A stretch of 64,000 nt of DNA from Phycisphaera sp. (GCA_016125285.1 WGMA01000016.1:1-64000); one strand, 5' to 3'; numbered from the stretch's first letter, positions 50,573-64,000 are shown. Program-made: numbers and translations. Notes: a model not told the origin generated them from the letters alone.

Positions 50573-50874
50573 GGCGGAATTCAATGCCGCGAGAACGCGA
50601 AAGTGAAGCGCCGGCAGAATTTTGTAGAGCGATTGAGACAAATGCGTGTGCCCGTGGAGGTTCGTGTCGAGCGACGCGGCGCGTCGCTCTATCGATCTAT
50701 TGGCCCGAACGCGCGGATTGTTACGCGCCTGGCGGCGGTCGGGGACTGATTGATTCGTGCAGTGCTTTGATTCGATCGGAGCTTGGTTCGGCGAGGTTCT
50801 TGCCCCTACAATGCGGCCACGATCGCTCACGTGGGCACGTGGGTGGGCACACATACACGTCCAATTCAGATGGG

Positions 50875-53787
50875 ATGGGCTTCATGGTACGGAACGTTAC
50901 AGTTGCTCTGTTGACGGTCCTGCTGGCGGTCGCCGCGCCGATGTACGCGGCGGCGCCGGTGCAGGAGATTTCCAAGTCGATCGACGCCGAGGCGGGGCTG
51001 GTGGTGGTGATCGGCGGCGGCGCCGACACCGCGGACATCGCCGCGGGCCTGGGCAACGGCGACCGGCTCGTGCACGTGATCGCCTCGGACTACGCCGAGC
51101 TCAAGCGTGTCAACGACGCGGTCGCCAAGGCGAACCTCAAGGGCTGCGTCACCGTCGAGGTGCTGGGCCTGGCGACGCTGCCGTACCGCGATCACCTGGT
51201 CAACGCGATGGTGATCACCGACGCGGACAAGGCGGCGAAGGCCGGGCTGAAGATGGAAGAGGCCACGCGGAGCGTCATCCCCGAGGGCGTGATCGTGCAG
51301 TGCCGCGGCGGCAAGGTTCAGGTCACGCGGACGCCGGTGCGTAACGACATGGACGTGTGGACCCACCGCTACCACGCGGCGGACGGCGTGCCGGTGTCCA
51401 ACGACAAGGTGTTCGCGATGCCGATCGGCTTCAAGTGGAACGCCGACCTGCCGATGAACTTCGACAACCCCGAGCGGGCGGCCAACCGCTACTCGTCCAC
51501 GCGGGCGCTGATCGTCGACGACGGCCGCATCTTCACGTTCAGCGAGTGTGTCGTGGAGAACCTCGGCGAGGGCGTCAGCTCGAAGTTCGGCACGGATCAG
51601 TACCTCACGTGCCGCGACGCGTTCAACGGCCGGCTGCTGTGGCGCAAGAACGTCGGCGACACCTACTACGGCGGGCTGTACATCGAGAACACCGCGCCGC
51701 TGATCAGCACGGGGCGTCGGCTCTACACGGCCGGGGCGAACGGCAAGATGGAGGTGCTCGATACGCGCAGCGGCGAGACCGTGCGTGAGCTGCCCACGAA
51801 GTTCATCCCCGGCGTGATCGCCGCGTCGCAGGGCGTGGTGGTGACCACGACGTGGTCCGGCGGCAAGCAGATGGGCTCGGTCAAGCATTACGACCGCCGG
51901 CGCATGGACTGGGAGATCAGCGCGGGCACGGTGGAGGCCTACGACGACGCGACGGGCAAGCTGCTGTGGAAGAACGACACGCTGGGCACGTCGCTGCTGA
52001 TCGCCGACGGAACGGTGTTCATCGTCAACCGCAACGAGCGGGACGCGCTGGAGGCCGAGCACAACAAGCGTCGCGAGGGCGTCGACCTCAAGCACCCGCC
52101 GCAGAAGGTCATCGCGTACGACCTGAAGACCGGCAAGCAGGTCTGGTCGGTAGACGACACGAGCTTCAATGTCAGTGACCAGCCGCTGAGCCTGGAGTCG
52201 GCGGGTCGCGGCGCGGTGGCGGTGGGGCTGGACGGTCGGTCGAAGGTCGCGATCCTCGCGGCCGACAGCGGCAAGCTGCTCGAGGCCGACGCGCTGAAGG
52301 AGGCGAACGACTACTTCTTCCGCTTCCGCAACCACATCTGCACGCCGGTGCTGCGTGTGGGCGACGTGGTGTTCAACAACCGCGGCGGCAACATCAAGGA
52401 CGGCAAGTCGAACACAAACTTCGGCGGCGCCCGCGCCGCGTGTCTGACCGGCACCGTGCCCGCCTACGGCGCCGGGTACATCGCGCAGAATTGGTGCCGC
52501 TGCTCGCCGGGCCAGATCCCCGGCCTGCTCGGCGTGGCGCCGATCGGCAAGGTCCCCACGCCCGAGGAGATGGAGGTCCCCACGCAGCCGATCAAGCTCG
52601 GCGACTACAGCGAGGGCGAGGACGGCGTGGCGCACCCGTCGAACTGGACGTCGTTCCGCGGCAACGCCGAGCGTAGCAGCAGCGTCGCGATGGACGTGCC
52701 CGACGACGTGAAGGAGAGCTGGTCGGTCAAGCTCGCCGGCGACGAGCTGGCCGGCACGATCCAGCGTGACTGGCAGTCGTACCTCAACAGCCGCCTGACC
52801 GCGCCGGTGCTCGCGGACAACCTCGCGATCGTCGGCGATATCGATCACAACGAGATCATCGCGTTCGACACCGCCAAGGGCGCCGTCAAGTGGCGGCACA
52901 TGCTCAGCGGCCGCGTCGACACGCCGCCGACCGTCTACAAGGGCATCGTGCTCATCGGCGATCACACCGGCTACGTCACGGCGCTGAAGGTGAAGAACGG
53001 TCAGCCGATCTACAAGCTGCGGATCGCGCCCGACGAGAAGCGGATGATGTCGTACGGCAAGGTCGAGTCGGTCTGGCCGGTGATCGGCGGCGTGCTGGTC
53101 GCCGAGGGCAAGGCGTTCGCCTCGGCGGGGCGCACGCAGGGCTCCGACGGCGGCCTGGTCGTCCGCGCCTTCGAGCCGGAGACCGGCAACCCGATCTGGG
53201 CGCAGGCCATCCCGCAGTCCAGCCCCGAGCTGACCGAGAAGAAGCCCAAGCGCAACGACGCGCTGGCGCGGCACGGCGAGTTCGTCACCGTCATGGGCCA
53301 CTGGCTCCGCCTCGACAACGGCGCGTTCGCACCGAAGCCCGAAGGCGACACGCTCGACATCGGGCTCGAAGGCCTCTACAGCTGGAACTGGACACGCCTG
53401 GGCGACCGCAAGTTCATGGCGATCGGCTACGGCTCGATCAAGGGCGACACCATCGCGTGGAACGACAGCTACGCCGTGACCACCCGTCACGACAGCAGCG
53501 GCCTGATCGCCTCGCGCGTCGACCCGAAGAAGGTCCGCGGCTTCCCCGGCCTGCCCAACATCTATCAGCCCACGTGCATGGTCGTGTGCAACAACGCCCT
53601 GATCCAGGGCGGCGCCATCCTCGACCAGCCCGCTGACAAGGGCTTCATCCGGGCCGTCAGCCTCACCGACGGCAAGGTCCTGTGGGAAAAGAAGTACACC
53701 AAGAAGCTCGCGTTCAACGGCCTGGCGGTCGATAACGGCGGGATCCTCGCCAGCTTCGACGACGGGTCGGTCGTCTGCCTCAAGTAA
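50875..53787 (+). CDS. Secreted methyltransferase-like fold plus PQQ-like beta-propeller protein (paralogue of 26896-30954)
   Basis: ORF trimmed to ATG 50875 (ATG 50884 is an alternative), with signal peptide LLTVLLAVAAPMYAAAP. The motif I position is degenerate (LVVVIGGGADTADIAAGL). Many propeller blades follow. The C-terminus ..DDGSVVCLK resembles ..VDGSITCLDAK of the paralogue. Confidence 0.75.
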   Translation: MGFMVRNVTVALLTVLLAVAAPMYAAAPVQEISKSIDAEAGLVVVIGGGADTADIAAGLGNGDRLVHVIASDYAELKRVNDAVAKANLKGCVTVEVLGLATLPYRDHLVNAMVITDADKAAKAGLKMEEATRSVIPEGVIVQCRGGKVQVTRTPVRNDMDVWTHRYHAADGVPVSNDKVFAMPIGFKWNADLPMNFDNPERAANRYSSTRALIVDDGRIFTFSECVVENLGEGVSSKFGTDQYLTCRDAFNGRLLWRKNVGDTYYGGLYIENTAPLISTGRRLYTAGANGKMEVLDTRSGETVRELPTKFIPGVIAASQGVVVTTTWSGGKQMGSVKHYDRRRMDWEISAGTVEAYDDATGKLLWKNDTLGTSLLIADGTVFIVNRNERDALEAEHNKRREGVDLKHPPQKVIAYDLKTGKQVWSVDDTSFNVSDQPLSLESAGRGAVAVGLDGRSKVAILAADSGKLLEADALKEANDYFFRFRNHICTPVLRVGDVVFNNRGGNIKDGKSNTNFGGARAACLTGTVPAYGAGYIAQNWCRCSPGQIPGLLGVAPIGKVPTPEEMEVPTQPIKLGDYSEGEDGVAHPSNWTSFRGNAERSSSVAMDVPDDVKESWSVKLAGDELAGTIQRDWQSYLNSRLTAPVLADNLAIVGDIDHNEIIAFDTAKGAVKWRHMLSGRVDTPPTVYKGIVLIGDHTGYVTALKVKNGQPIYKLRIAPDEKRMMSYGKVESVWPVIGGVLVAEGKAFASAGRTQGSDGGLVVRAFEPETGNPIWAQAIPQSSPELTEKKPKRNDALARHGEFVTVMGHWLRLDNGAFAPKPEGDTLDIGLEGLYSWNWTRLGDRKFMAIGYGSIKGDTIAWNDSYAVTTRHDSSGLIASRVDPKKVRGFPGLPNIYQPTCMVVCNNALIQGGAILDQPADKGFIRAVSLTDGKVLWEKKYTKKLAFNGLAVDNGGILASFDDGSVVCLK

Positions 53788-53820
53788 GGCCGACACGCGA
53801 CAGCACGACACGCATCGACC

Positions 53821-53847
53821 AACGCCCCGTGCCCCGCGCGGGGCGTT
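53821..53847 (+). terminator. Candidate terminator stem-loop
   Basis: AACGCCCCG-(9 nt)-CGGGGCGTT, followed by gtcttg. The U-tract is weak. Confidence 0.5.
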
Positions 53848-54066
53848 GTCTTGCGCCGCGGCGATCCGCCAGTGTGGGCCGGTTGGCGCGGTTCGAGCCA
53901 AAATGCCACGCCGGCGCGGACCGCGCGGCGGTGGTCGGGATACAATGCCCCCGCACCGGGACCGGGCGACGGCCCACCCCGCTGACCGTCCGACGGCGTT
54001 GTCGGGCGGGAGGTCACACGCGTGACCTCGACTACTCAATCGCGATGGGCACGCGAAAGGATCGAT

Positions 54067-55119
54067 ATGCGTTCTTATCTGGCAGCGGCCATGGTTCTGG
54101 CGTTCGTGCTCCCATCGGTTTTGCGGGCGGAGGCCGGCGTGACTTACGAAGGCGACAGCGGCCCCGGCAAGGGCAAGCACATCGTGTTCATCGCCTCGGA
54201 CCACGAGTACCGCGGCGAAGAAACCTGCCCCGCGATCGCACGCATCCTCGCCAAGCGCTACGGGTTCAAGTGCACCGTGCTGTTCGGGCTCGACGGCGAG
54301 GGCAACGTCAAGGCCGGCTCGTCGAACATCCCCGGCATGGAGGCGCTCGACGACGCGGACATGCTGTTCCTGTTCATCCGCTTCCTGGCGCCCGACGACG
54401 AGTCGATGAAGCACTTCGTGGCGTACCTCGAGCGCGGCGGTCCGGTCCTCGGGCTGCGGACGTCGACCCACGGGTTCAACGGCCTGAAGGGCGACTACGC
54501 GAAGTACAACTACAACAACGGGGACCCCAACTTCGAGGGCGGCTTCGGCCGTCAGGTCCTCGGCGAGACGTGGAACCCCAAGAAGGGCGCCGGTCACTAC
54601 GGCAGCAACCACAAGTACAGCACGCGCCTGCACACCGTGCCGGAGCAGGCGAGCCACCCGGTGATGACCGGCTGCAAGGACATGCACGTCATGGCGGGCG
54701 CCTACTCGGCCGTGCCCCAGCCCAACTCCGTCATCCTCGCGACCAATCAGGTGCTGGATAGCATGTCGCCCGACGCCAAGCCGCTCGAAGGCAAGACGCC
54801 TCAGCCGGCCGTGTGGGTGCGGACGTACCAGCTGCCGGGCGGCAAGGAGGGCCGGGCGTTCTGCTCCACGCAGGGCGCGTCGCAGGACATCCTCAGCGAC
54901 GACTTCCGCCGCTGCATCATCAACGGCGTGTTCTGGTGCATGGGGATGGAGGACGCGATCAAGGCGGACATGGACGTGTCGTTTGTCGGGCCGTACAACC
55001 CCGCAACGTTCGCGTTCGGCGGCGAGCGCAAGGGCGTGAAGCCGGCCGACATCGCGGGCTGGGACACGCCGATCTGGAACCCGGACGCACCGACCGACGC
55101 CCCGAAGAAAAAGAAGTGA
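54067..55119 (+). CDS. ThuA-like (class I glutamine-amidotransferase-fold) secreted protein
   Basis: ORF trimmed to ATG 54067, with a signal peptide. KHIVFIASDHEYRGEE, DMLFLFIRF and RRCIINGVFWCMG fit the ThuA-domain pattern as I recall it. Confidence 0.6.
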   Translation: MRSYLAAAMVLAFVLPSVLRAEAGVTYEGDSGPGKGKHIVFIASDHEYRGEETCPAIARILAKRYGFKCTVLFGLDGEGNVKAGSSNIPGMEALDDADMLFLFIRFLAPDDESMKHFVAYLERGGPVLGLRTSTHGFNGLKGDYAKYNYNNGDPNFEGGFGRQVLGETWNPKKGAGHYGSNHKYSTRLHTVPEQASHPVMTGCKDMHVMAGAYSAVPQPNSVILATNQVLDSMSPDAKPLEGKTPQPAVWVRTYQLPGGKEGRAFCSTQGASQDILSDDFRRCIINGVFWCMGMEDAIKADMDVSFVGPYNPATFAFGGERKGVKPADIAGWDTPIWNPDAPTDAPKKKK

Positions 55120-55129
55120 GACGCCATCC

Positions 55130-56794
55130 ATGATGACGATTCGACAATCCGCGTTCTGCGCCGGAGTGATGTTCGTTGCGATGCTGGCGCTGTTCGTCGC
55201 CGTTTGCCATCCCCAACCGGCGCACGCGGCGGCGGCGGCGCCCGGCAAGCGCCCGAACGTCGTGTTCATCCTCGCCGATGACATGGGCTACTCGGACCTG
55301 GGCTGCTACGGCGGCGAGATCGAGACGCCGAACCTCGACGCGCTGGCGGCGGACGGGCTGCGCTTCACGCAGTTCTACAACACCGCACGCTGCTGGCCTT
55401 CGCGTGCGGCGCTGATGACCGGGTATTACGCGCAGCAGGTGCACCGCGACGGGCTGCCGGGCTTGGGCGGCGGCGGTGGGGGCAGGCGTCAGGAGTGGGC
55501 GCGGCTGCTGCCGGACTTCCTTGCGCCGCTCGGCTACCGCAGCTATCACAGCGGCAAGTGGCACATCGACGGCAAGGTGCTCGACGCGGGGTTCGACCAC
55601 TCGCTCGACGTGCGCAATCACGGCGACAACTTCACGTGCAAGGGCAACCTGGTCGACGACAAGCCCGTCACGCCGCCGGCCGACGAGTCGGGCTATTACT
55701 CGACGACGGCGATCGTCCAGCACGCGATCGACTGCCTGAAGGATCACGCCGCGCACTACGCCGGCCGGCCGTTCTTCAGCTACGTCGCGTTCGTCGCGCC
55801 GCACTTCCCGCTGCAGGCCCCGCAGGACGACATCGCCCGCTACGCCGGCAAGTACGACGCGGGCTGGGACGTGATGCGCGAGCGGCGTTTCGCGCGGCAG
55901 AAGGAGCTCGGCGTCGTCAACACCACGCTGTCGAAGCTCGAGCCGGACGTCGGCCCGCCGTACTACTTCGCCGACGCGTTCGAGAAGCTCGGCCCCGGCG
56001 AGGTCCGGTACCCGGTGCCTTGGGACCAGCTGACCGACGAGCAGAAGAAGTTCCAGTCGACGAAGATGTCGATCCACGCGGCGATGGTGTACCGCATCGA
56101 TCAGGAGGTCGGGCGGCTCGTCGCGCAGCTCAAGGCGATGGGGCAGTTCGACAACACGCTGATCTTCTTCGCGTCGGACAACGGCGCCAGCGCGGAGATC
56201 ATGGTGCGGGCGGGCGGCCACGATCCAAGCGCCCCGCCGGGCAGCGCCAAGACGTTCCTGTGCCTGGGGCCGGGCTTTTCGAGCGCGTGCAACACGCCGC
56301 ACCGGCGGCACAAGACCTGGGTGCACGAAGGCGGGATCAGCACGCCGCTGATCGTGCACTGGCCGGCGGGCATCAAGGCGCACGGCGAGCTGCGGCACAC
56401 GCCGGGCCACTTCGTCGACATCATGCCGACCGTGCTCGAGGTCGCCGGCGGTGAGAAGCCGAAGCGGTGGAAGGGCGAGGCGCTGCCGCCGGCGCCCGGT
56501 CACAGCCTGGTCGCGGCGTTCGCCGATGACGTGACGATCGCGCGCGACCACCTGTGGTGGCTGCACGAGGGCAACCGCGCGATCCGCGTGGGTGACTGGA
56601 AGCTCGTGGCGGCGAAGGGCGATCCGTGGGAGCTGTACGACATGACGTGCGATCGCGCCGAGTCACACAACCTCGCGGCCCAGAAGCCCGAACTCGTCGA
56701 GCGGCTCGCAGCCGAGTGGGACGCGCAGACCAAACAGATCAGCGAGTTGGCGAAGCAGACCGCGGACCTCGGCGGCAGGGCGAAAAAGAAATAA
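55130..56794 (+). CDS. Cys-type arylsulfatase
   Basis: A signal peptide is followed by RPNVVFILADDMGYSDLGCYG and the active site CWPSRAALMTG. SDNGAS is also present. Confidence 0.9.
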   Translation: MMTIRQSAFCAGVMFVAMLALFVAVCHPQPAHAAAAAPGKRPNVVFILADDMGYSDLGCYGGEIETPNLDALAADGLRFTQFYNTARCWPSRAALMTGYYAQQVHRDGLPGLGGGGGGRRQEWARLLPDFLAPLGYRSYHSGKWHIDGKVLDAGFDHSLDVRNHGDNFTCKGNLVDDKPVTPPADESGYYSTTAIVQHAIDCLKDHAAHYAGRPFFSYVAFVAPHFPLQAPQDDIARYAGKYDAGWDVMRERRFARQKELGVVNTTLSKLEPDVGPPYYFADAFEKLGPGEVRYPVPWDQLTDEQKKFQSTKMSIHAAMVYRIDQEVGRLVAQLKAMGQFDNTLIFFASDNGASAEIMVRAGGHDPSAPPGSAKTFLCLGPGFSSACNTPHRRHKTWVHEGGISTPLIVHWPAGIKAHGELRHTPGHFVDIMPTVLEVAGGEKPKRWKGEALPPAPGHSLVAAFADDVTIARDHLWWLHEGNRAIRVGDWKLVAAKGDPWELYDMTCDRAESHNLAAQKPELVERLAAEWDAQTKQISELAKQTADLGGRAKKK

Positions 56795-57617: not shown

Positions 57618-57621
57618 AATG

Positions 57622-57694
57622 TGGGCAAGGGCGGACTTGAACCGCCGACACCGGCATTTTCAGTGCCGTGCTCTACCAGCTGAGCTACTTGCCC
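57622..57694 (-). tRNA. tRNA-Phe (anticodon GAA)
   Basis: The 73-nt cloverleaf was folded by hand: acceptor GGGCAAG/CTTGCCC, D arm GCTC-AGCTGGTA-GAGC, anticodon arm CGGCA-CTGAAAA-TGCCG, variable loop GTGTC, T arm GGCGG-TTCAAGT-CCGCC and discriminator A. CCA is not encoded. Confidence 0.95.
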
Positions 57695-58438: not shown

Positions 58439-59302
58439 TTACGGCTGCGGCCAGGCGAGGCGGACGGTGAAGCCGGACGGCAGCTGCTCGTCGGGGTTGT
58501 CGATGGTGAACACGCAGCGGAAGGTCTGGCTGGCGGGCTCGATCTGGGGCTCGACGCTCTTGAGCTTGCCGATGACGGTCTTGCGTGTGCGGTTGACGGG
58601 CGGGCCGGCGTAGAAGGTGTACTCCTTGCCGATCTGCAGCTCGCCGTAGAGCTGCACGGGCAGGAACATCTGCGCCTCGAGCGGGTTGAGCGCGATCATG
58701 TAGATGATCACGTCGTCGCTGCGGTTGTTGGAGACGGTGGCGCCCTCTTCGACGCCGAGCTGGAGGATGCGTCCGTCGAACGGCGCCTTGATCTTGTAGC
58801 GATCGAGTCGGAGCTGCTCGAGGTCGAGCGACGACTTGGCGCGGTCGAGGTCGATCTGGGCTCCGGTCTGCTGGAGCTCGCGCTGCCGGAGCTCGAAGTC
58901 ACCGATCGCCTTCTTCTCGAGCAGCCGCTTGGCCTGGTCCACCTGCAGCTTGGCCTCCTCGAGCAGGGCGGCGCGGCGGTCGACCTCGAGCCGGGCGGCC
59001 TCGACCTGCACGATCTGCAGCTCGTCGTCCATCACCGCCAGCACGTCGCCTTCCTTGACCGAGTCGTCCTCATCGACGTTGATCTTCTTGATCAGGCCTT
59101 CGAGCGGCGCCATGAGCGACACCTTCTTCGACGGCTTGACGAGTCCGGTAAGTCTTTCGTCGTCGGGGGTGATCGGCTTGAGCTGCAGGGGCTGCTCGAT
59201 GTCGCCCGCCGCGGCGCCCTGACTCTGGCCGGTCGAAACCGACGCGACGGCCAGCGCGGCGAGCACGGCGGTGAAGCAGAATAACCTTGACAAAGTTTTC
59301 AT
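58439..59302 (-). CDS. Periplasmic membrane-fusion protein (HlyD / RND-adaptor family)
   Basis: ORF trimmed to ATG 59302 (ATG 59305 is an alternative), following AGGAGG. It has a signal peptide. The biotinyl-lipoyl-like hairpin includes GLIKKINVDEDDSVKEGDVLAVMDD and IKAPFDGRIL. A coiled coil and a beta-barrel follow. Confidence 0.8.
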   Translation of the reverse strand: MKTLSRLFCFTAVLAALAVASVSTGQSQGAAAGDIEQPLQLKPITPDDERLTGLVKPSKKVSLMAPLEGLIKKINVDEDDSVKEGDVLAVMDDELQIVQVEAARLEVDRRAALLEEAKLQVDQAKRLLEKKAIGDFELRQRELQQTGAQIDLDRAKSSLDLEQLRLDRYKIKAPFDGRILQLGVEEGATVSNNRSDDVIIYMIALNPLEAQMFLPVQLYGELQIGKEYTFYAGPPVNRTRKTVIGKLKSVEPQIEPASQTFRCVFTIDNPDEQLPSGFTVRLAWPQP

Positions 59303-59406: not shown

Positions 59407-61335
59407 ATGAGTCAGACGGCCGATCAAGTTCAGCGGCTCGTTCAGCAGGCGTTGGGCGAGTTCGAGCAGCAGATGTCCAGCGACGAGAAGCCCTCGTCGG
59501 TGCTGACCAAGATGATGGAAACGCTGCTGCGCACGACGCAGGGCGTGGGCGCCGTGGCGTGGATGTTCAAGGACCCCGAGCACCCGGAGTTCACGTCGGT
59601 GGCGCAGGTGGGCCCGGCGTCGCCGCTGGTGTTCGACCCCGAGGGCCGCATCCAGACGCCCGTGCGTGAGGTGCTCCAGCAGAGCGCGTCGCAGGGCAAG
59701 CCGATCATCGTCGCGCCCGATCAGCCGGACTTCCAGAAGACGGACCTGCACAACACGTGTCAGTTCATCGTGCCGATCGACGCGATGGGCCGCACGCTGG
59801 GCGTGGTGCAGCTGATCCACACCAAGGACCTGGACCCGAAGGTCTACCGCCAGTTCGTGATGTTCACGCAGCAGGCGTCGCGTGCGGCGGGGCTGTACCT
59901 GGCGCGGCGTCAGAGCAACGTGCTCCGCGAAGACCTCGACGCGGCGACGCGCATGCTCAAGATGTCGCACCAGCTGGTCAAGGTCTCCACGCCCGAGGAC
60001 CTGATCCACGAGCTGGCGAACCTGGCGCGCAACGCGCTGAAGGCGCAGCGCATGTCGGCGGTGGGGTACTGGCGGAACAAGACGGAGGTCGCGTTCAGCG
60101 ACACGATCGAGGTCAACCGCAAGGCGGTGGTCGTGCGGACCGTCGAGCTGCTCGCCGAGGTCGTGCGCGACCGGCGCGTGCCGATGGTGTTCCTCCGCGA
60201 CCAGGAGCTCGAGCCGGAGGAGCAGTCGCTGCTGCCGCTGCTGGAGGATCTGTACAGCCACGGCGCGGCCGAGGCGATCGTGCTCACGCCGCTGATGGTC
60301 GACAAGAAGGTCGTCGGCGTGCTGATCGGCGAGTACGACGACGCGGAAGAGGCGTCGGCGCGATCGGCGACGCAGAGCGAGGTCGCCGGTCAGGCGGCGC
60401 CGCTGCTGAACCAGGTCGTCGAGTGGCGCTACCGCCCGCTGCGTCGCACGAGCGACCTGCTGGCGTCGATCCGCCGCAGGCCGATGTCGTCGATGGGCAA
60501 GGTGGCGGTGGCGGTCGCGATCGTCTGGTTCGTGATCCACGTGCTGTTCTTCGTGCCGATGCCGGTGTCGGTGTTCGGCGAGGCGCGTCTGGAGCCGGCC
60601 AAGCTGGCGCTGATCACGGCGCCCGAGGCCGGGCGGATCAGCGACGTGAAGATCGTCAACGGTGAGGCGGTGGAGCGCGGCCAGGTGCTGGCGACGATGG
60701 ACGACATCGACCTGAAGCTGGAGCTGGCGGAGATCGTGCAGAAGATCAGCGGCGAGCGGGTGGAGCTGGAGGCGTCGCGTCGCGAGGGCGACCGGCCGAA
60801 GCTTCAGGCCTCCCAGCTCCGCATCGAGCAGTATCAGCTGCAGAAGCAGTCGCTGGAGCGCAAGATCGAACGCGCGCAGGTGCGCACGCCGATCGGCGGC
60901 GTGGTGCTCGACGACCGCCCGCAGCGGCTGATCGACCGCACCGTCGCGCAGGGCGACGAGCTGATGAGCGTGGCGGACCTCACGGAGTTCGAGCTGGTGA
61001 TCGACCTGCACGAGGAAGACCTCGCGGCGGTGGAGGAGGCGATCCGCGACGGCAAGGAGGTCGAGGTGTCGTTCCTCAGCCGCCCCTGGCCGGACCTCGT
61101 CCAGCACGCGAAGGTCACGAACATCGAGCAGCTGTCGCCGACGAGCCGCCCCGACGAATACCAGAAGCAGCACGTGTTCCGCATCATCGTGCCGATCGAG
61201 CTGGAGGGCCTGAGCCCGCAGCTGGTGCTGGCGAACCCGACCGGCCGCGCCAAGCTGATCACGCCGCCGCGCAGCATCGCGTACGGCGTGTTCGGCGGCG
61301 TGTGGCGATTCCTGAAGATGACCCTGTTCTTCTAA
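59407..61335 (+). CDS. Tandem GAF domains, one TM and a HlyD-type membrane-fusion domain in one protein
   Basis: ORF trimmed to ATG 59407. Two GAF-like regions are present (..QFIVPIDAMGRTLGVVQLIH and ..LTPLMVDKKVVGVLIGEY). The TM is VAVAVAIVWFVIHVLFFV. The HlyD hairpin includes ITAPEAGRISDVKIVNGEAVERGQVLATMDD and VRTPIGGVVL. Confidence 0.8.
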   Translation: MSQTADQVQRLVQQALGEFEQQMSSDEKPSSVLTKMMETLLRTTQGVGAVAWMFKDPEHPEFTSVAQVGPASPLVFDPEGRIQTPVREVLQQSASQGKPIIVAPDQPDFQKTDLHNTCQFIVPIDAMGRTLGVVQLIHTKDLDPKVYRQFVMFTQQASRAAGLYLARRQSNVLREDLDAATRMLKMSHQLVKVSTPEDLIHELANLARNALKAQRMSAVGYWRNKTEVAFSDTIEVNRKAVVVRTVELLAEVVRDRRVPMVFLRDQELEPEEQSLLPLLEDLYSHGAAEAIVLTPLMVDKKVVGVLIGEYDDAEEASARSATQSEVAGQAAPLLNQVVEWRYRPLRRTSDLLASIRRRPMSSMGKVAVAVAIVWFVIHVLFFVPMPVSVFGEARLEPAKLALITAPEAGRISDVKIVNGEAVERGQVLATMDDIDLKLELAEIVQKISGERVELEASRREGDRPKLQASQLRIEQYQLQKQSLERKIERAQVRTPIGGVVLDDRPQRLIDRTVAQGDELMSVADLTEFELVIDLHEEDLAAVEEAIRDGKEVEVSFLSRPWPDLVQHAKVTNIEQLSPTSRPDEYQKQHVFRIIVPIELEGLSPQLVLANPTGRAKLITPPRSIAYGVFGGVWRFLKMTLFF

Positions 61336-61370: not shown

Positions 61371-63620
61371 ATGGCGCACCTCCCGTTCCAACCCGAACCG
61401 CCTCAGCCGCCGCAGCACGGCGTGGACGACGAGCCGTTCCAGCGCGACAACTCCGGCCAGGCCGAGCAGGCGATGTCCGAGCCGCTGCCGGCGGTGCGCA
61501 AGGACCTGGAGATCAGCCCGCAGCTGTACCTCGGCAAGATCGTGTACGTCGTGAAGGACCCGGTGAGCCTGACGTATTTCCGCCTCAAGCCCGCCGAGCA
61601 CTTCGTGCTCAAGAACCTCGACGGCCAGGCCAGCGCCAACGACATGGCGCGGAAGCTGGCGCGTCACTTCCCCGAGCAGCCCGCCGACGCCGAGCAGGTG
61701 ATGGTCTTCATCCGCATGCTGCAGGGCTCGGGCCTGCTGCTGGGCCGCGGCGAGTCGCACGGCGAGTGGATCCGCGAGAACCGCGACGAGCGCCGCCGCA
61801 AGAACGTCATGGCGCAGTGGTTCAACTTCCTGTTCATCAAGATCCCCATCATGGACCCGGACCACCTGCTCGACGACATCTACAGCTTCGTGCGGTTCTT
61901 CATGAACCGAAAGACGATGTGGCTGGCGGCGATCTTCCTGGTCTCGTCGCTCGTGGCCATCGGGCTCCACCTCGACCGCGTCGGCGCGCTGAAGTTCCCC
62001 GTGCTCGGGTGGATCAACGCCCTGATGCTCACCGGCACGTTCCTCACGGTGAAGGTCATCCACGAGTTCGGGCACGGCCTGGCCGCCAAACACCGCGGCC
62101 TCGAAGTGCACGAGATCGGCGTGATGATGATGGTGTTCTTCCCTGTGTTCTACGTCGACGTGTCCGACGCGTGGATGGTCACGCGGCGATCCGACCGCCT
62201 GTGGATCAACGCCGGCGGCGTGTACATCGAGTGCCTCTTCGCCTCCATCGCCGCGTGGGTGTTCCTCAGCACCGACCCCGGCGTCGTCAACCAGATCGCG
62301 TTCAACACGATGCTCGCCGCGTCGGTCACCACCGTGCTGTTCAACGCCAACCCGCTGCTGCGGTACGACGGCTACTACTTCCTGATGGACTGGCTGGAGA
62401 TCCCCAACCTCCGCTCCAAGGCCGGCAACTACTGCGGCTACCTCGCCAAGCGCTACCTGCTGGGCATGGACGAGGAGGTCCCGCCGCACGAGGCGTCGAC
62501 CCACCCGATCTTCATGCCGCTGTACTCCGCGGCCGCGGGCGTCTACCGCTGGGTCGTGGTCTTCGGCATCATCGCCGTCGTCTGGCACCTGCTCGATCCG
62601 TACGGCCTCGAGGTGATCAGCGCCATCATGGGCATCGTCGCCGTCGTCACCATGCTGCTGCTGCCGCTCGGACAGATGCTCTCGTTCGTCTGGTCGCAGC
62701 AGAAGGCGCGCACCGGCAGGCAGGTCGCGATCAGCGTGCTCGGCGTCGTGGCGCTGTTCGGCGTCGCCGCCGGCATCCTCGCCATCCCCACCGATCAGAC
62801 CGTCAAGCACCCCGTCGTCGTCCTCGCCGTCGAGCGCCAGCCCGTGTTCGCCTTCGTGCCCGGACGCGTCGACGAGGTCCACGTCGACGACGGCCAGTAC
62901 GTCCACAAGGGCGACCCGCTGCTGACCCTCCGCAACCCGCCGCTCGTCGATCGCCTCGACCAGCTCGGCGTGTCGCTGCGGCTGACCCAGCTCCAGCTCG
63001 AATCCTCACGCATCGACGGCCGCATCGACGTCGTCGCGTCGCTCACCACGCAGATCAAGCACATCCGCGAGCAGATCGACGTGACCAACGAGAAGATCGC
63101 CGAGCTGGTCGTCCGCGCCCCGATCGACGGACGCATCCAGACCTACCGCCGCCTGCAGACCCTGCTGGGCATGATGGTCGACCGCGGCGACGAGATCGCC
63201 CTGGTCGTCGGCGACCAGCAACGCGAGGTCGACATGGTCCTGCCCGAGACCGACGCCTCGCTCGTCGAGGTCGACGACCGGGTCAACGTCCGCCTCTGGG
63301 GCTCGGCCGAGTTGGCCCGGGTCGGCCACGTCGAGCGGGTCGGATCGCAGATTCTCAAGTCCCTGCCCCACGAGGCCCTGTCCTCGCGGTTCAAGGGCGA
63401 AGTGGACACTGTGCCCACCAGTCAGTACAATTCCGCCCCCAGCACGCCGTCCGTGATCGCCACGATCACCATGGACCCGGGACAGGCGCCGCTGCCGCTC
63501 GACGGCAGCACCGGACGCGGCTCGATCATCGTGGAGGAGAAAGTGACCCTCGCCGCCCAGCTGTGGCGCAGGATCCGCCAGGTGATCAGTCCCGACTATC
63601 GCCTGTGGATGATGAAATAA
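61371..63620 (+). CDS. PqqD-like N-terminal domain, M50 (site-2 protease family) membrane metalloprotease and a HlyD-type membrane-fusion domain in one protein
   Basis: HEFGH lies at 62061-62075 and the second M50 motif NPLLRYDG at 62349-62372. The N-terminus reads YVVKDPVSLTYFRLKPAEHFVLKNLDGQASANDMARKL. The C-terminal hairpin includes GRVDEVHVDDGQYVHKGDPLLTL and VRAPIDGRIQ. Confidence 0.8.
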   Translation: MAHLPFQPEPPQPPQHGVDDEPFQRDNSGQAEQAMSEPLPAVRKDLEISPQLYLGKIVYVVKDPVSLTYFRLKPAEHFVLKNLDGQASANDMARKLARHFPEQPADAEQVMVFIRMLQGSGLLLGRGESHGEWIRENRDERRRKNVMAQWFNFLFIKIPIMDPDHLLDDIYSFVRFFMNRKTMWLAAIFLVSSLVAIGLHLDRVGALKFPVLGWINALMLTGTFLTVKVIHEFGHGLAAKHRGLEVHEIGVMMMVFFPVFYVDVSDAWMVTRRSDRLWINAGGVYIECLFASIAAWVFLSTDPGVVNQIAFNTMLAASVTTVLFNANPLLRYDGYYFLMDWLEIPNLRSKAGNYCGYLAKRYLLGMDEEVPPHEASTHPIFMPLYSAAAGVYRWVVVFGIIAVVWHLLDPYGLEVISAIMGIVAVVTMLLLPLGQMLSFVWSQQKARTGRQVAISVLGVVALFGVAAGILAIPTDQTVKHPVVVLAVERQPVFAFVPGRVDEVHVDDGQYVHKGDPLLTLRNPPLVDRLDQLGVSLRLTQLQLESSRIDGRIDVVASLTTQIKHIREQIDVTNEKIAELVVRAPIDGRIQTYRRLQTLLGMMVDRGDEIALVVGDQQREVDMVLPETDASLVEVDDRVNVRLWGSAELARVGHVERVGSQILKSLPHEALSSRFKGEVDTVPTSQYNSAPSTPSVIATITMDPGQAPLPLDGSTGRGSIIVEEKVTLAAQLWRRIRQVISPDYRLWMMK

Positions 63621-63685: not shown

Positions 63686-64000
63686 ATGGCTAAGGACAAG
63701 AACGACGACAAGACCACCCCGGAATCCGCCGAGCACGCCACCGCCGGTGCGGGCGACACCGTCAGCGCCCCCGCTGAGCAGACTCCCCCGCGCGGCGCCC
63801 AGCTCCGCCTCGACGAGTCCAACGTGCAGTGCTTCTACTCCTCGACGACCCGTCTCTCCGGTTCCGCCGAAGAGATCACCATCGACTTCGCCCAGGGCAT
63901 CCGCCCCGTCGGCCCCAACGCCGCCGTCCTGAAGATCGACGCCCGCGTCGTCATGTCCCCCTGGGGAGCCAAGCGCCTCGTCCAGGCCCTCGAGCAGACC
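63686..64000 (+). CDS. DUF3467 family protein (5' part; continues past the window end)
   Basis: This ORF is absent from the ORF track because there is no stop before the window edge. I translated it by hand from ATG 63686, which follows GAAGAAGGAAGG: MAKDKNDDKTTPES...LRLDESNVQCFYSSTTRLSGSAEEITIDFAQGIRPVGPNAAVLKIDARVVMSPWGAKRLVQALEQT. This fits my recollection of the DUF3467 pattern. Confidence 0.65.
   Translation, partial: MAKDKNDDKTTPESAEHATAGAGDTVSAPAEQTPPRGAQLRLDESNVQCFYSSTTRLSGSAEEITIDFAQGIRPVGPNAAVLKIDARVVMSPWGAKRLVQALEQT

Follow-up and report, generated by a model that had tools for sequence, protein, structure and literature searches.

A single gene near the end of a 64,000-nucleotide stretch of Phycisphaera sp. 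DNA (GCA_016125285.1, WGMA01000016.1:1-64000; hereafter the window) raises the question as to what a protein does that joins a peptide-binding domain, an intramembrane protease and a periplasmic adaptor in one chain. The gene (61371-63620, plus strand, ATG start) encodes a 749-aa fusion protein in which a cytoplasmic PqqD-type domain, or recognition element (RRE) of RiPPs (peptides made on ribosomes and modified after translation), is followed by an M50 (site-2 protease) membrane core and a HlyD-type membrane-fusion (adaptor) domain. The analysis described here suggests, with a probability of roughly 55%, that it is the core subunit, seated in the inner membrane, of a conserved module for secretion and processing that spans the envelope, recognizes and cleaves leaders and operates without an ATP-binding cassette (ABC) protein; judged by its neighbours in two phyla, the module probably processes and exports giant surface proteins that carry an N-terminal LEPR-XLL leader. 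The three folds, the intact catalytic residues, the predicted topology and the conserved operon were computed directly, as was the repeated adjacency, in two phyla, to genes for LEPR-XLL giants, TolC, SecA-like proteins and DUF3467.

Domain Organization and Topology of the Fusion Protein

A first-pass annotation, made from the sequence of the window, had delimited this reading frame and its two protease motifs, and both sets of coordinates are exact: the zinc-binding and catalytic motif HEFGH (residues 231-235, with H231, E232 and H235) lies at 62061-62075, and NPLLRYDG (residues 327-334) lies at 62349-62372 within the second M50 motif NANPLLRYDG (residues 325-334, 62343-62372), which contributes N325, N327, P328, D333 and G334. 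Of these, D333 is predicted to act as the third ligand of the zinc. The division into PqqD-like, M50 and HlyD parts is borne out by Pfam and by an AlphaFold2 model built from a 44-sequence alignment (mean predicted local distance difference test score, pLDDT, of 85). HlyD_3 (46 bits), HlyD_D23 (43) and Biotin_lipoyl_2 (34.5) exceed their gathering scores, as does Peptidase_M50 (29.6 bits, cut-off 27.2). PqqD (PF05402, residues 60-123) stays just under its cut-off of 23.4 bits when the whole protein is scanned (21.6) and passes it when residues 36-140 are scanned by themselves (25.1); it is matched by 22/22 homologous N-terminal domains (best E-value 4.6e-8).

In the model, the RRE (residues ~46-120, 61506-61730) is made of strands 47-53, 56-63 and 68-72 followed by helices 74-81, 89-99 and 107-119, and this order of three strands and three helices is that of the RRE winged helix. 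The N-terminal domain was also modelled separately (pLDDT 87) and used as a Foldseek query; the top 10 matches are all RRE proteins, including TfuB1, CteB, TbiB1 and PqqD, so that the resemblance to PqqD noted at first sight holds at the level of the fold. The M50 core (residues 180-470, 61908-62780) resembles solved site-2 proteases, RseP among them, and has seven transmembrane helices (180-199, 214-241, 273-300, 305-325, 381-411, 414-444 and 449-470); HExxH sits within helix 214-241, NPLLRYDG just past helix 305-325, and a β-hairpin (248-263) is inserted between the HExxH helix and the following one. The remaining part (residues 473-749, 62787-63620) has a strong adaptor fold, modelled as lipoyl half-motifs, an α-hairpin (523-577, with helices 523-549 and 552-577) and a β-barrel.

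Lysines and arginines number 2 + 5 + 2 in the loops assigned to the inside versus 2 + 0 + 0 in those assigned to the outside. Together with the seven helices, these charges point to a cytoplasmic N-terminus and RRE and a periplasmic HlyD part, the arrangement that the first-pass annotation had assumed, and a topology so predicted would bring the zinc site of the M50 core near the cytoplasmic face. Conservation is high in the third strand of the RRE (residues 66-72, Y69 and R71 included); this hints at a leader bound there as an extra strand, a reading of the alignment that is only suggestive.

Family Size and Conservation of the Catalytic Site

An identical protein, from a Phycisphaera sp. metagenome-assembled genome (MAG) at NCBI, goes by the name of “HlyD family efflux transporter periplasmic adaptor subunit”, and the names given to homologues conflict (HlyD adaptor, PqqD chaperone, biotin/lipoyl-binding protein, Peptidase M50, “putative peptide zinc metalloprotease”). 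The best 120 homologues are nearly all full length (700-770 aa, few fragments), and the named ones are from planctomycetes. When one genome per GTDB species is scanned, a relative is found to be encoded in at least 582 species, and the best 80 matches are labelled Planctomycetota except for one Puniceicoccaceae MAG. With the RRE-M50 part by itself as query, 3,238 cluster representatives are retrieved (E ≤ 1e-30), and among the top 150 almost all are of fused length (700-760 aa); with thousands of proteins built as this same three-part chain, chance is excluded as an issue.

H231, E232, H235, N325, N327, P328, D333 and G334 are invariant in 44/44 planctomycete homologues (30-53% identity), and the catalytic residues are also invariant in 10 proteobacterial homologues, so that the M50 core is intact in orthologues as it is in the window. 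In a set of homologues spanning two phyla, HExxH is invariant in 16/16, and N325, P328 and D333 likewise. Overall identity between the phyla is 23-27%, and the invariance of HExxH and NxxPxxxxDG at this distance indicates, as far as alignments can tell, selection for catalysis. The RRE has invariant residues of its own across the same 44 homologues (R43, D45, Q51, G55, K62, D63, P64, Y69, R71 and G85), of which R43 and R71 extend to the proteobacterial ones.

The invariant motifs bear directly on the simplest explanation of the protein, that it is an ordinary efflux-pump adaptor in which the M50-like helices serve as a mere membrane anchor. The RefSeq product names and the strong adaptor fold agree with this; however, both motifs are invariant across two phyla, and neither the window nor 85 planctomycete loci nor 13 proteobacterial plasmid contexts have an ABC, resistance-nodulation-division (RND) or major facilitator superfamily (MFS) transporter gene beside the module, all of which makes a plain pump adaptor very improbable. 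The sole type I ABC gene seen lies in Phyllobacterium, ~5 kb off on the other strand, and has a HlyD of its own.

Relationship to Leader-Cleaving Proteases

The best family match of the fusion protein is MpaP/DapP (NF041824, daptide_HExxH; 169.7 bits, E = 1e-49, residues 66-430 aligned with profile positions 25-368 of 379). Daptides were found through an RRE fused to an intramembrane site-2 protease, and their gene clusters have so far come from Gram-positive bacteria (Microbacterium, Staphylococcus). MpaP/DapP shares the N-terminal RRE and the M50 core with the fusion protein and removes an N-terminal leader after RRE recognition; in contrast to the fusion protein, MpaP has no HlyD domain, and it acts on ~25-aa peptides of a modification gene cluster. 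With a family cut-off of 300 bits, the fusion protein is thus a relative and not a member. The first-pass annotation had named YydH, an M50 protease implicated in peptide maturation at the Bacillus yydFGHIJ epipeptide locus, as a precedent, but this is not the closest one: with YydH/LiaK (NF058609, cut-off 225), the fusion protein scores 45.9 bits (E = 5.5e-12), and the 246 profile positions match its M50 core only (residues 207-352), neither the RRE nor the HlyD domain. Neither a radical S-adenosylmethionine epimerase nor an ABC transporter is encoded beside the fusion gene, and the window offers no yydFGIJ-like context.

That the top NCBIfam matches are RiPP proteases, that RRE domains are typical of RiPP pathways and that the NHLP bacteriocin HlyD model TIGR03794 matches weakly might together suggest a RiPP-type maturation, in which a small ribosomal peptide is bound by the RRE through its leader, the M50 core cuts that leader off, as happens to daptides or YydF, and the HlyD domain passes the mature peptide to an exporter. 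Yet both protease scores are far under their cut-offs, and the gene content of related loci argues the other way. All-against-all clustering of 3,594 open reading frames (ORFs) of 25-160 aa from the 85 planctomycete loci brought out no conserved small precursor, only DUF3467, infA and shadow frames; the small leader-like ORFs envisaged by the first-pass annotation did not materialize, and the idea of a RiPP precursor is unsupported. Neither daptide cluster genes (MpaB/C/D/M) nor Thr-ending precursors occur near the fusion gene, and modification enzymes and ABC exporters are not recurrent at the loci examined. The module forms a near-universal, single-copy planctomycete operon in varying surroundings, unlike a biosynthetic gene cluster, and its conserved cargo-like neighbours encode giant proteins. 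Maturation of a small peptide is accordingly quite unlikely.

Giant Neighbours and Their LEPR-XLL Leaders

The cargo-like neighbours are most evident on plasmids. In a tblastn search of PLSDB, 69 proteobacterial plasmids encode the architecture in full length (25-29% identity), 52/69 covering at least 80% of the query, and a giant ORF is adjacent in 11 of the 13 plasmid contexts examined. On an Escherichia coli IncF plasmid, an operon flanked by insertion sequences (IS) encodes a 4,459-aa “Ig-like” giant, TolC, a small adaptor, a HlyD protein and the fusion protein; the giant starts with RRLRPRAHRFALESRQLFDGAAL (also given as MTTIKNRRLRPRAHRFALESRQLFDGAAL), followed by DUF4347. An Azospirillum plasmid has the same gene order. 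In Thalassospira the order is LEPR-XLL protein (NF012209, 28 bits against a cut-off of 17), DUF3467, HlyD, fusion protein, small adaptor and TolC, and in Methylosinus it is giant protein (IIFDTLEPRVLLNAD; also given as ...RRAKIIFDTLEPRVLLNAD), DUF3467, GAF-HlyD, fusion protein, truncated SecA, small adaptor and TolC. In these four genera, then, TolC is encoded in the same operon as the fusion protein; more generally, the neighbours of the module usually include TolC, plus a truncated SecA in Alphaproteobacteria. LEPR-XLL giants annotated as such by RefSeq lie directly upstream in Pseudosulfitobacter and Pontibrevibacter (genes of 38.7 kb and 31.8 kb), giant ORFs of >5,340, 2,306 and 2,547 aa end just ahead of the module in Sinorhizobium, Rhodobacteraceae M382 and Pseudohalocynthiibacter, and Tistrella, likewise with an adjacent giant ORF, has a protein with the start ...ALAQALEPRMMFDAAG at 4 kb from the module.

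The giant neighbours, from proteobacterial plasmids and several planctomycetes, are 1,400 to ~12,900 aa long, and wherever their N-termini are readable or annotated, they consist of a basic, non-hydrophobic LExLEPRxLL leader (for example MKKRSSKQQQAKQPARKKSRLQLEALEPRVLLTTLFGG). A planctomycete case is the 7,141-aa protein of Mucisphaera, encoded divergently beside the operon, with the N-terminus KKSRLQLEALEPRVLLTT (its start is also given as MKKRSSKQQQAKQPARKKSRLQLEALEPRVLLTT); LEPR-like N-termini stand beside the operon in five further planctomycete loci (L005, L006, L016, L037 and L074; loci of the comparison are designated by L and a number). Over 780 kb of planctomycete flanks, ORFs of at least 300 aa contain eight N-terminal LEPR-type motifs, six of which fall within 1 kb of the operon (expected share 18%; binomial p = 7.8e-4); with scrambled motifs the same flanks yield 0-1 matches. 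NF012209 was run both on 400-aa N-terminal fragments, where E. coli and Mucisphaera are unmatched, and on short fragments, where Mucisphaera (17.6 bits) and L013 (19.1) pass, L006 (15.5) falls just below the cut-off, and the E. coli, Isosphaeraceae, Bremerella (L037) and Pirellulales (L074) leaders are not matched.

With 5-10 K/R in the first 30 residues and a maximum 12-aa Kyte-Doolittle hydropathy of 0.8-1.7, the leaders are K/R-rich and have no hydrophobic core, and are thus unlike Sec or Tat signals. Their LExLEPR motif resembles the daptide leader motif ELExMEAP, a likeness that fits a shared mode of recognition since the two proteases share a homologous RRE. The substrate, which the first-pass annotation had left as unknown while allowing for peptides or proteins, can be narrowed down, in that these neighbourhoods point to the LEPR-XLL giants; proteins are indicated, peptides are not.

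The Three-Protein Module in the Window and in Planctomycetota

The fusion protein does not stand alone. A module of GAF+HlyD, Peptidase_M50(+HlyD) and HlyD/Biotin_lipoyl proteins was described, on bioinformatic grounds only, by Kamneva, Poudel and Ward (PLoS One 2015; PMC4452313), often with a truncated “secondary SecA_DEAD” and sometimes with OEP/TolC genes. The authors proposed a type-I-secretion-like machine in which SecA_DEAD gives ATP and the M50 helices act as the pore, allowed for partner genes at other places in the genome and suggested that the GAF protein is regulatory (PMC4452313). The window holds the same gene family and three-protein set; a SecA neighbour is likewise found in Bremerella (L037) and on alphaproteobacterial plasmids, while the window locus differs in having no adjacent SecA_DEAD gene. 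The 2015 paper terms the M50 similarity “weak” and does not mention PqqD/RRE, DUF3467, the conservation of the catalytic motifs or a substrate; the module itself has been on record since 2015. A literature search returned no paper joining M50, HlyD and PqqD, nor RRE and HlyD; “DUF3467”, “DUF4347” and “LEPR-XLL” came up only in incidental mentions, and “M50” was accidental in two adaptor reviews. The substrate hypothesis is thus new relative to the searchable literature. As for the earlier view that recognition, cleavage and release are coupled in one chain, the general idea is supported by computation, in that the three domains are fused, and needs amending in that the chain is one of three HlyD-type proteins of the module.

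In the window, the first partner is a 642-aa GAF-TM-HlyD protein (59407-61335, plus strand, a gene call; Pfam GAF, HlyD_D23 and HlyD_3) with cytoplasmic GAF domain(s), a single transmembrane helix and an adaptor domain in the periplasm; 35 nt separate its stop codon from the fusion gene, which follows on the same strand. The second is a 287-aa adaptor of the HlyD/RND_mfp type with an N-terminal signal sequence (58439-59302, minus strand, thus divergent; TIGR01730 RND_mfp, 158.5 bits against a cut-off of 94.9), the gene for which stands between the other two module genes in Planctomycetia. A DUF3467 gene (plus strand, 135 aa in full) starts at 63686, 65 nt after the fusion gene, and runs past the window end at 64000; no terminator-like site separates the three plus-strand genes.

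The planctomycete sample comprises 85 loci, 63 of which have enough upstream DNA to be judged, and was searched with hidden Markov models (HMMs) of the GAF, M50 and HlyD parts and of DUF3467, made from the fetched loci using domain envelopes. GAF-HlyD is encoded within 4.5 kb upstream of the fusion gene in 57/63 informative loci and both partners are present in 49/63; 14 planctomycete loci have DUF3467 at no more than 4.5 kb from the fusion gene, placed after it in Phycisphaerae and Bremerella and before GAF-HlyD in Pirellulales and a Kuenenia-labelled MAG. The six informative loci with no GAF-HlyD detected within 4.5 kb upstream (L012, L047, L050, L055, L073 and L076) belong to Sedimentisphaerales, Thermoguttaceae, Mariniblastus and a Pirellulaceae MAG; in five of them the HMMs find no partner anywhere in the locus, and in L047 (Thermoguttaceae) there is a separate 331-aa HlyD ORF ~1.5 kb upstream. 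The missing partners may be unlinked or too divergent for the HMMs.

The GAF partner invites another reading, namely regulated intramembrane proteolysis: the M50 core would cut a type-II membrane protein, either GAF-TM-HlyD itself or an anti-sigma factor, the HlyD domain would serve as a periplasmic gate or in oligomerization like the PDZ domains of RseP, and nothing would be exported. GAF-TM-HlyD is N-in and single-pass, the typical topology of a site-2 protease substrate; the fold of the core is like that of RseP, a GAF domain implies signal input, and a regulatory role for the GAF protein is also suggested in PMC4452313. Against this, no conserved sigma, anti-sigma or DNA-binding gene is found nearby, and the RRE, the recurrent TolC, the truncated SecA and the giant LEPR-XLL neighbours are left unexplained, so that signalling proteolysis is an unlikely role for the module.

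A Proposed Route for LEPR-XLL Proteins

If the module is an export machine for LEPR-XLL proteins, the cytoplasmic RRE would capture the N-terminal leader of the substrate, a basic stretch followed by LExLEPRxLL, and hand it to the active site of the M50 core, close to the cytoplasmic face. The M50 core would then remove the leader, as MpaP does with daptide precursors and SpoIVFB with pro-sigma-K. The HlyD domain of the fusion protein and the two partner HlyD proteins may build a single periplasmic duct to a channel of the TolC family, through which the substrate, typically a giant repetitive surface protein, would exit. GAF would supply a regulatory input, and DUF3467 and, in some lineages, the truncated SecA ATPase would act as accessory factors.

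By comparison with known systems, such a machine would combine familiar elements in a different way. Peptidase-containing ABC transporters (CvaB/CvaA/TolC) couple leader removal to export, and LapA/LapEBC handles a giant repetitive adhesin as cargo. Like the module on the E. coli, Azospirillum, Thalassospira and Methylosinus plasmids, these type I systems use a HlyD-type adaptor and TolC and have the cargo gene in the operon; unlike them, the module has no ABC transporter of the HlyB type and has three different adaptors. The peptidase of the module is an M50 protease fused to an adaptor, whereas its type I counterpart is a cysteine protease of the C39 type joined to the ABC protein, and the candidate signal is an N-terminal LEPR-XLL sequence in place of a double-glycine leader or a C-terminal RTX signal. 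Among site-2 proteases, SpoIVFB cuts the N-terminal pro-sequence off pro-sigma-K, which is not a transmembrane protein, and accessory domains (CBS, PDZ) gate substrate access. SpoIVFB and RseP share the M50 core fold and motifs with the fusion protein, which differs from both in its cytoplasmic RRE, its periplasmic adaptor, its seven helices and the absence of a sigma-factor context.

As SpoIVFB solely removes a pro-sequence, processing might be all that the fusion protein does. It would then serve LEPR-XLL proteins as a dedicated leader peptidase or in quality control, translocation would fall to a different machine (Sec together with SecA or SecA2, or else a type I system that is unlinked), and the HlyD domains would do no more than tether the protease to an envelope complex. 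Operons without an obvious inner-membrane channel fit this, and so does the truncated SecA that accompanies many modules and keeps its preprotein cross-linking domain. However, three adaptor-type proteins, TolC and cargo in one IS-flanked operon are hard to explain without a duct, and the leaders have no Sec-type hydrophobic core; processing divorced from export is thus rather unlikely.

Several observations count against export of LEPR-XLL proteins by the module. Most planctomycete loci show no substrate next door, and the planctomycete cases of adjacency are partly non-independent (three Isosphaeraceae with shared synteny, two related Phycisphaerae). The E. coli and Isosphaeraceae leaders are unmatched by NF012209, their likeness to the motif being judged by eye alone, and the resemblance between the LEPR and daptide motifs spans 5-6 residues and could be due to chance. 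Operons of the E. coli/Azospirillum type have no evident inner-membrane channel or energy source, and the E. coli type encodes no ATPase. In the 44-homologue alignment the α-hairpin of the HlyD domain is poorly conserved and thus presents no clear conserved TolC-docking tip. Finally, the window itself has no LEPR-type ORF and, by tblastn, no TolC or SecA-like gene; substrate and outer-membrane channel must therefore be encoded elsewhere in the genome. By the same method TolC or SecA is absent from most planctomycete loci, and an adjacent SecA_DEAD gene, found only in L031 and L037, is lacking in 83/85.

A more far-reaching version of the proposal holds that the module is a distinct ABC-independent secretion pathway, with the fusion protein as signal receptor, signal peptidase and duct part for LEPR-XLL proteins, some of which, at ~4,000 to 13,000 aa, rank with the largest proteins of bacteria, DUF3467 as chaperone and the truncated SecA as motor; the pathway would be present nearly throughout Planctomycetota and mobile on plasmids of proteobacteria, E. 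coli IncF among them. This version is tentative, its chances being somewhat short of even. If true, it would define a new type of secretion system and give a first function to the LEPR-XLL leader and to DUF3467. The proposed role of the module in export, if right, would provide a substrate class and a mechanism for a module of thousands of members now filed under at least four conflicting names. It would account for the exit of giant LEPR-XLL surface proteins, the examined termini of which show neither a Sec or Tat signal nor a type I signal at the C-terminus, and would extend the RRE, hitherto the mark of natural-product pathways for small peptides, into protein secretion; the module may then represent a main route of export in Planctomycetota, a phylum with a poorly understood envelope.

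For such a pathway, the five-gene plasmid operon of E. coli (cargo, TolC, two adaptors and fusion protein) would be a tractable experimental system. At ≥99% identity, the E. coli fusion gene is present in 24 of 5,426 complete genomes, at 21 places on plasmids and 4 on chromosomes. The operon corresponds to L088 6830-26581 (NZ_CP081687.1, record 44829-64580), is flanked by IS5/IS1 and resides on IncFIA/FIB plasmids, NZ_CP030920.1 being a further record that carries it; a fusion gene of the E. coli type also occurs in Citrobacter.

Accessory Genes and Minor Features

DUF3467 proteins are 98-135 aa long, have no transmembrane segment and accompany the module in Planctomycetota and Alphaproteobacteria alike. 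They adjoin it on Thalassospira, Methylosinus, Pontibrevibacter and Pseudohalocynthiibacter plasmids, the gene being flanked, on alphaproteobacterial plasmids, by that for the giant LEPR-XLL protein and that for GAF-HlyD; further DUF3467 genes are found at L090 12678-12974, L094 15693-16013, L098 17812-18093 and L099 7641-7985. Seventeen residues are invariant in 15 planctomycete sequences, including D43, Y51, R56, E62, E63, D67, R87 and A95-K96-R97. The possibility that DUF3467 is a SecB-like chaperone was considered and dropped, as neither a PDB profile search nor hhalign against E. coli SecB showed any similarity.

The truncated SecA of the module (638-674 aa) comprises SecA_DEAD, PP_bind and P-loop_SecA and is devoid of the wing/scaffold domain; its genes lie at L094 20171-22087, L093 21080-23104, L098 22088-24073, L087 11090-13048 and L037 2463-4484. 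Pfam confirms the SecA domains in Methylosinus, Pseudosulfitobacter, Rhodobacteraceae M382 and an unannotated Bremerella ORF in L037. The latter locus has the full set, i.e., a 673-aa SecA (SecA_DEAD, PP_bind and P-loop, no wing/scaffold), GAF-HlyD, small HlyD, fusion protein and DUF3467. In terms of nomenclature, RefSeq misnames the truncated SecA “prepilin peptidase” in Methylosinus and Pseudosulfitobacter and has it right in Rhodobacteraceae M382 (“preprotein translocase subunit SecA”); a 661-aa Pontibrevibacter gene at the same position carries the name “DEAD/DEAH box helicase”.

In about ten loci of the Pirellulales type (L043, L052-L054, L059, L060, L067 and others), infA, the gene for initiation factor IF-1, lies divergently ~0.5-0.8 kb upstream of GAF-HlyD; this adjacency is probably lineage synteny. 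Further upstream in the window, a 1,472-aa ORF on the minus strand (50866-55284) was rejected as a gene, being a high-G+C shadow frame over plausible plus-strand genes at 50584-53787 (1,067 aa, signal peptide), 54022-55119 (365 aa) and 55130-56794 (554 aa, start only). A tRNA-Phe (GAA) gene occupies 57621-57694 on the minus strand, ~750 nt past the 3' end of the small adaptor gene and beyond a 174-aa ORF. Right after the small adaptor gene, also on the minus strand, stands a strong terminator-like hairpin (58412-58374; 17 bp stem, 12 G-C pairs, T-rich tail), which fits a monocistronic divergent transcript.

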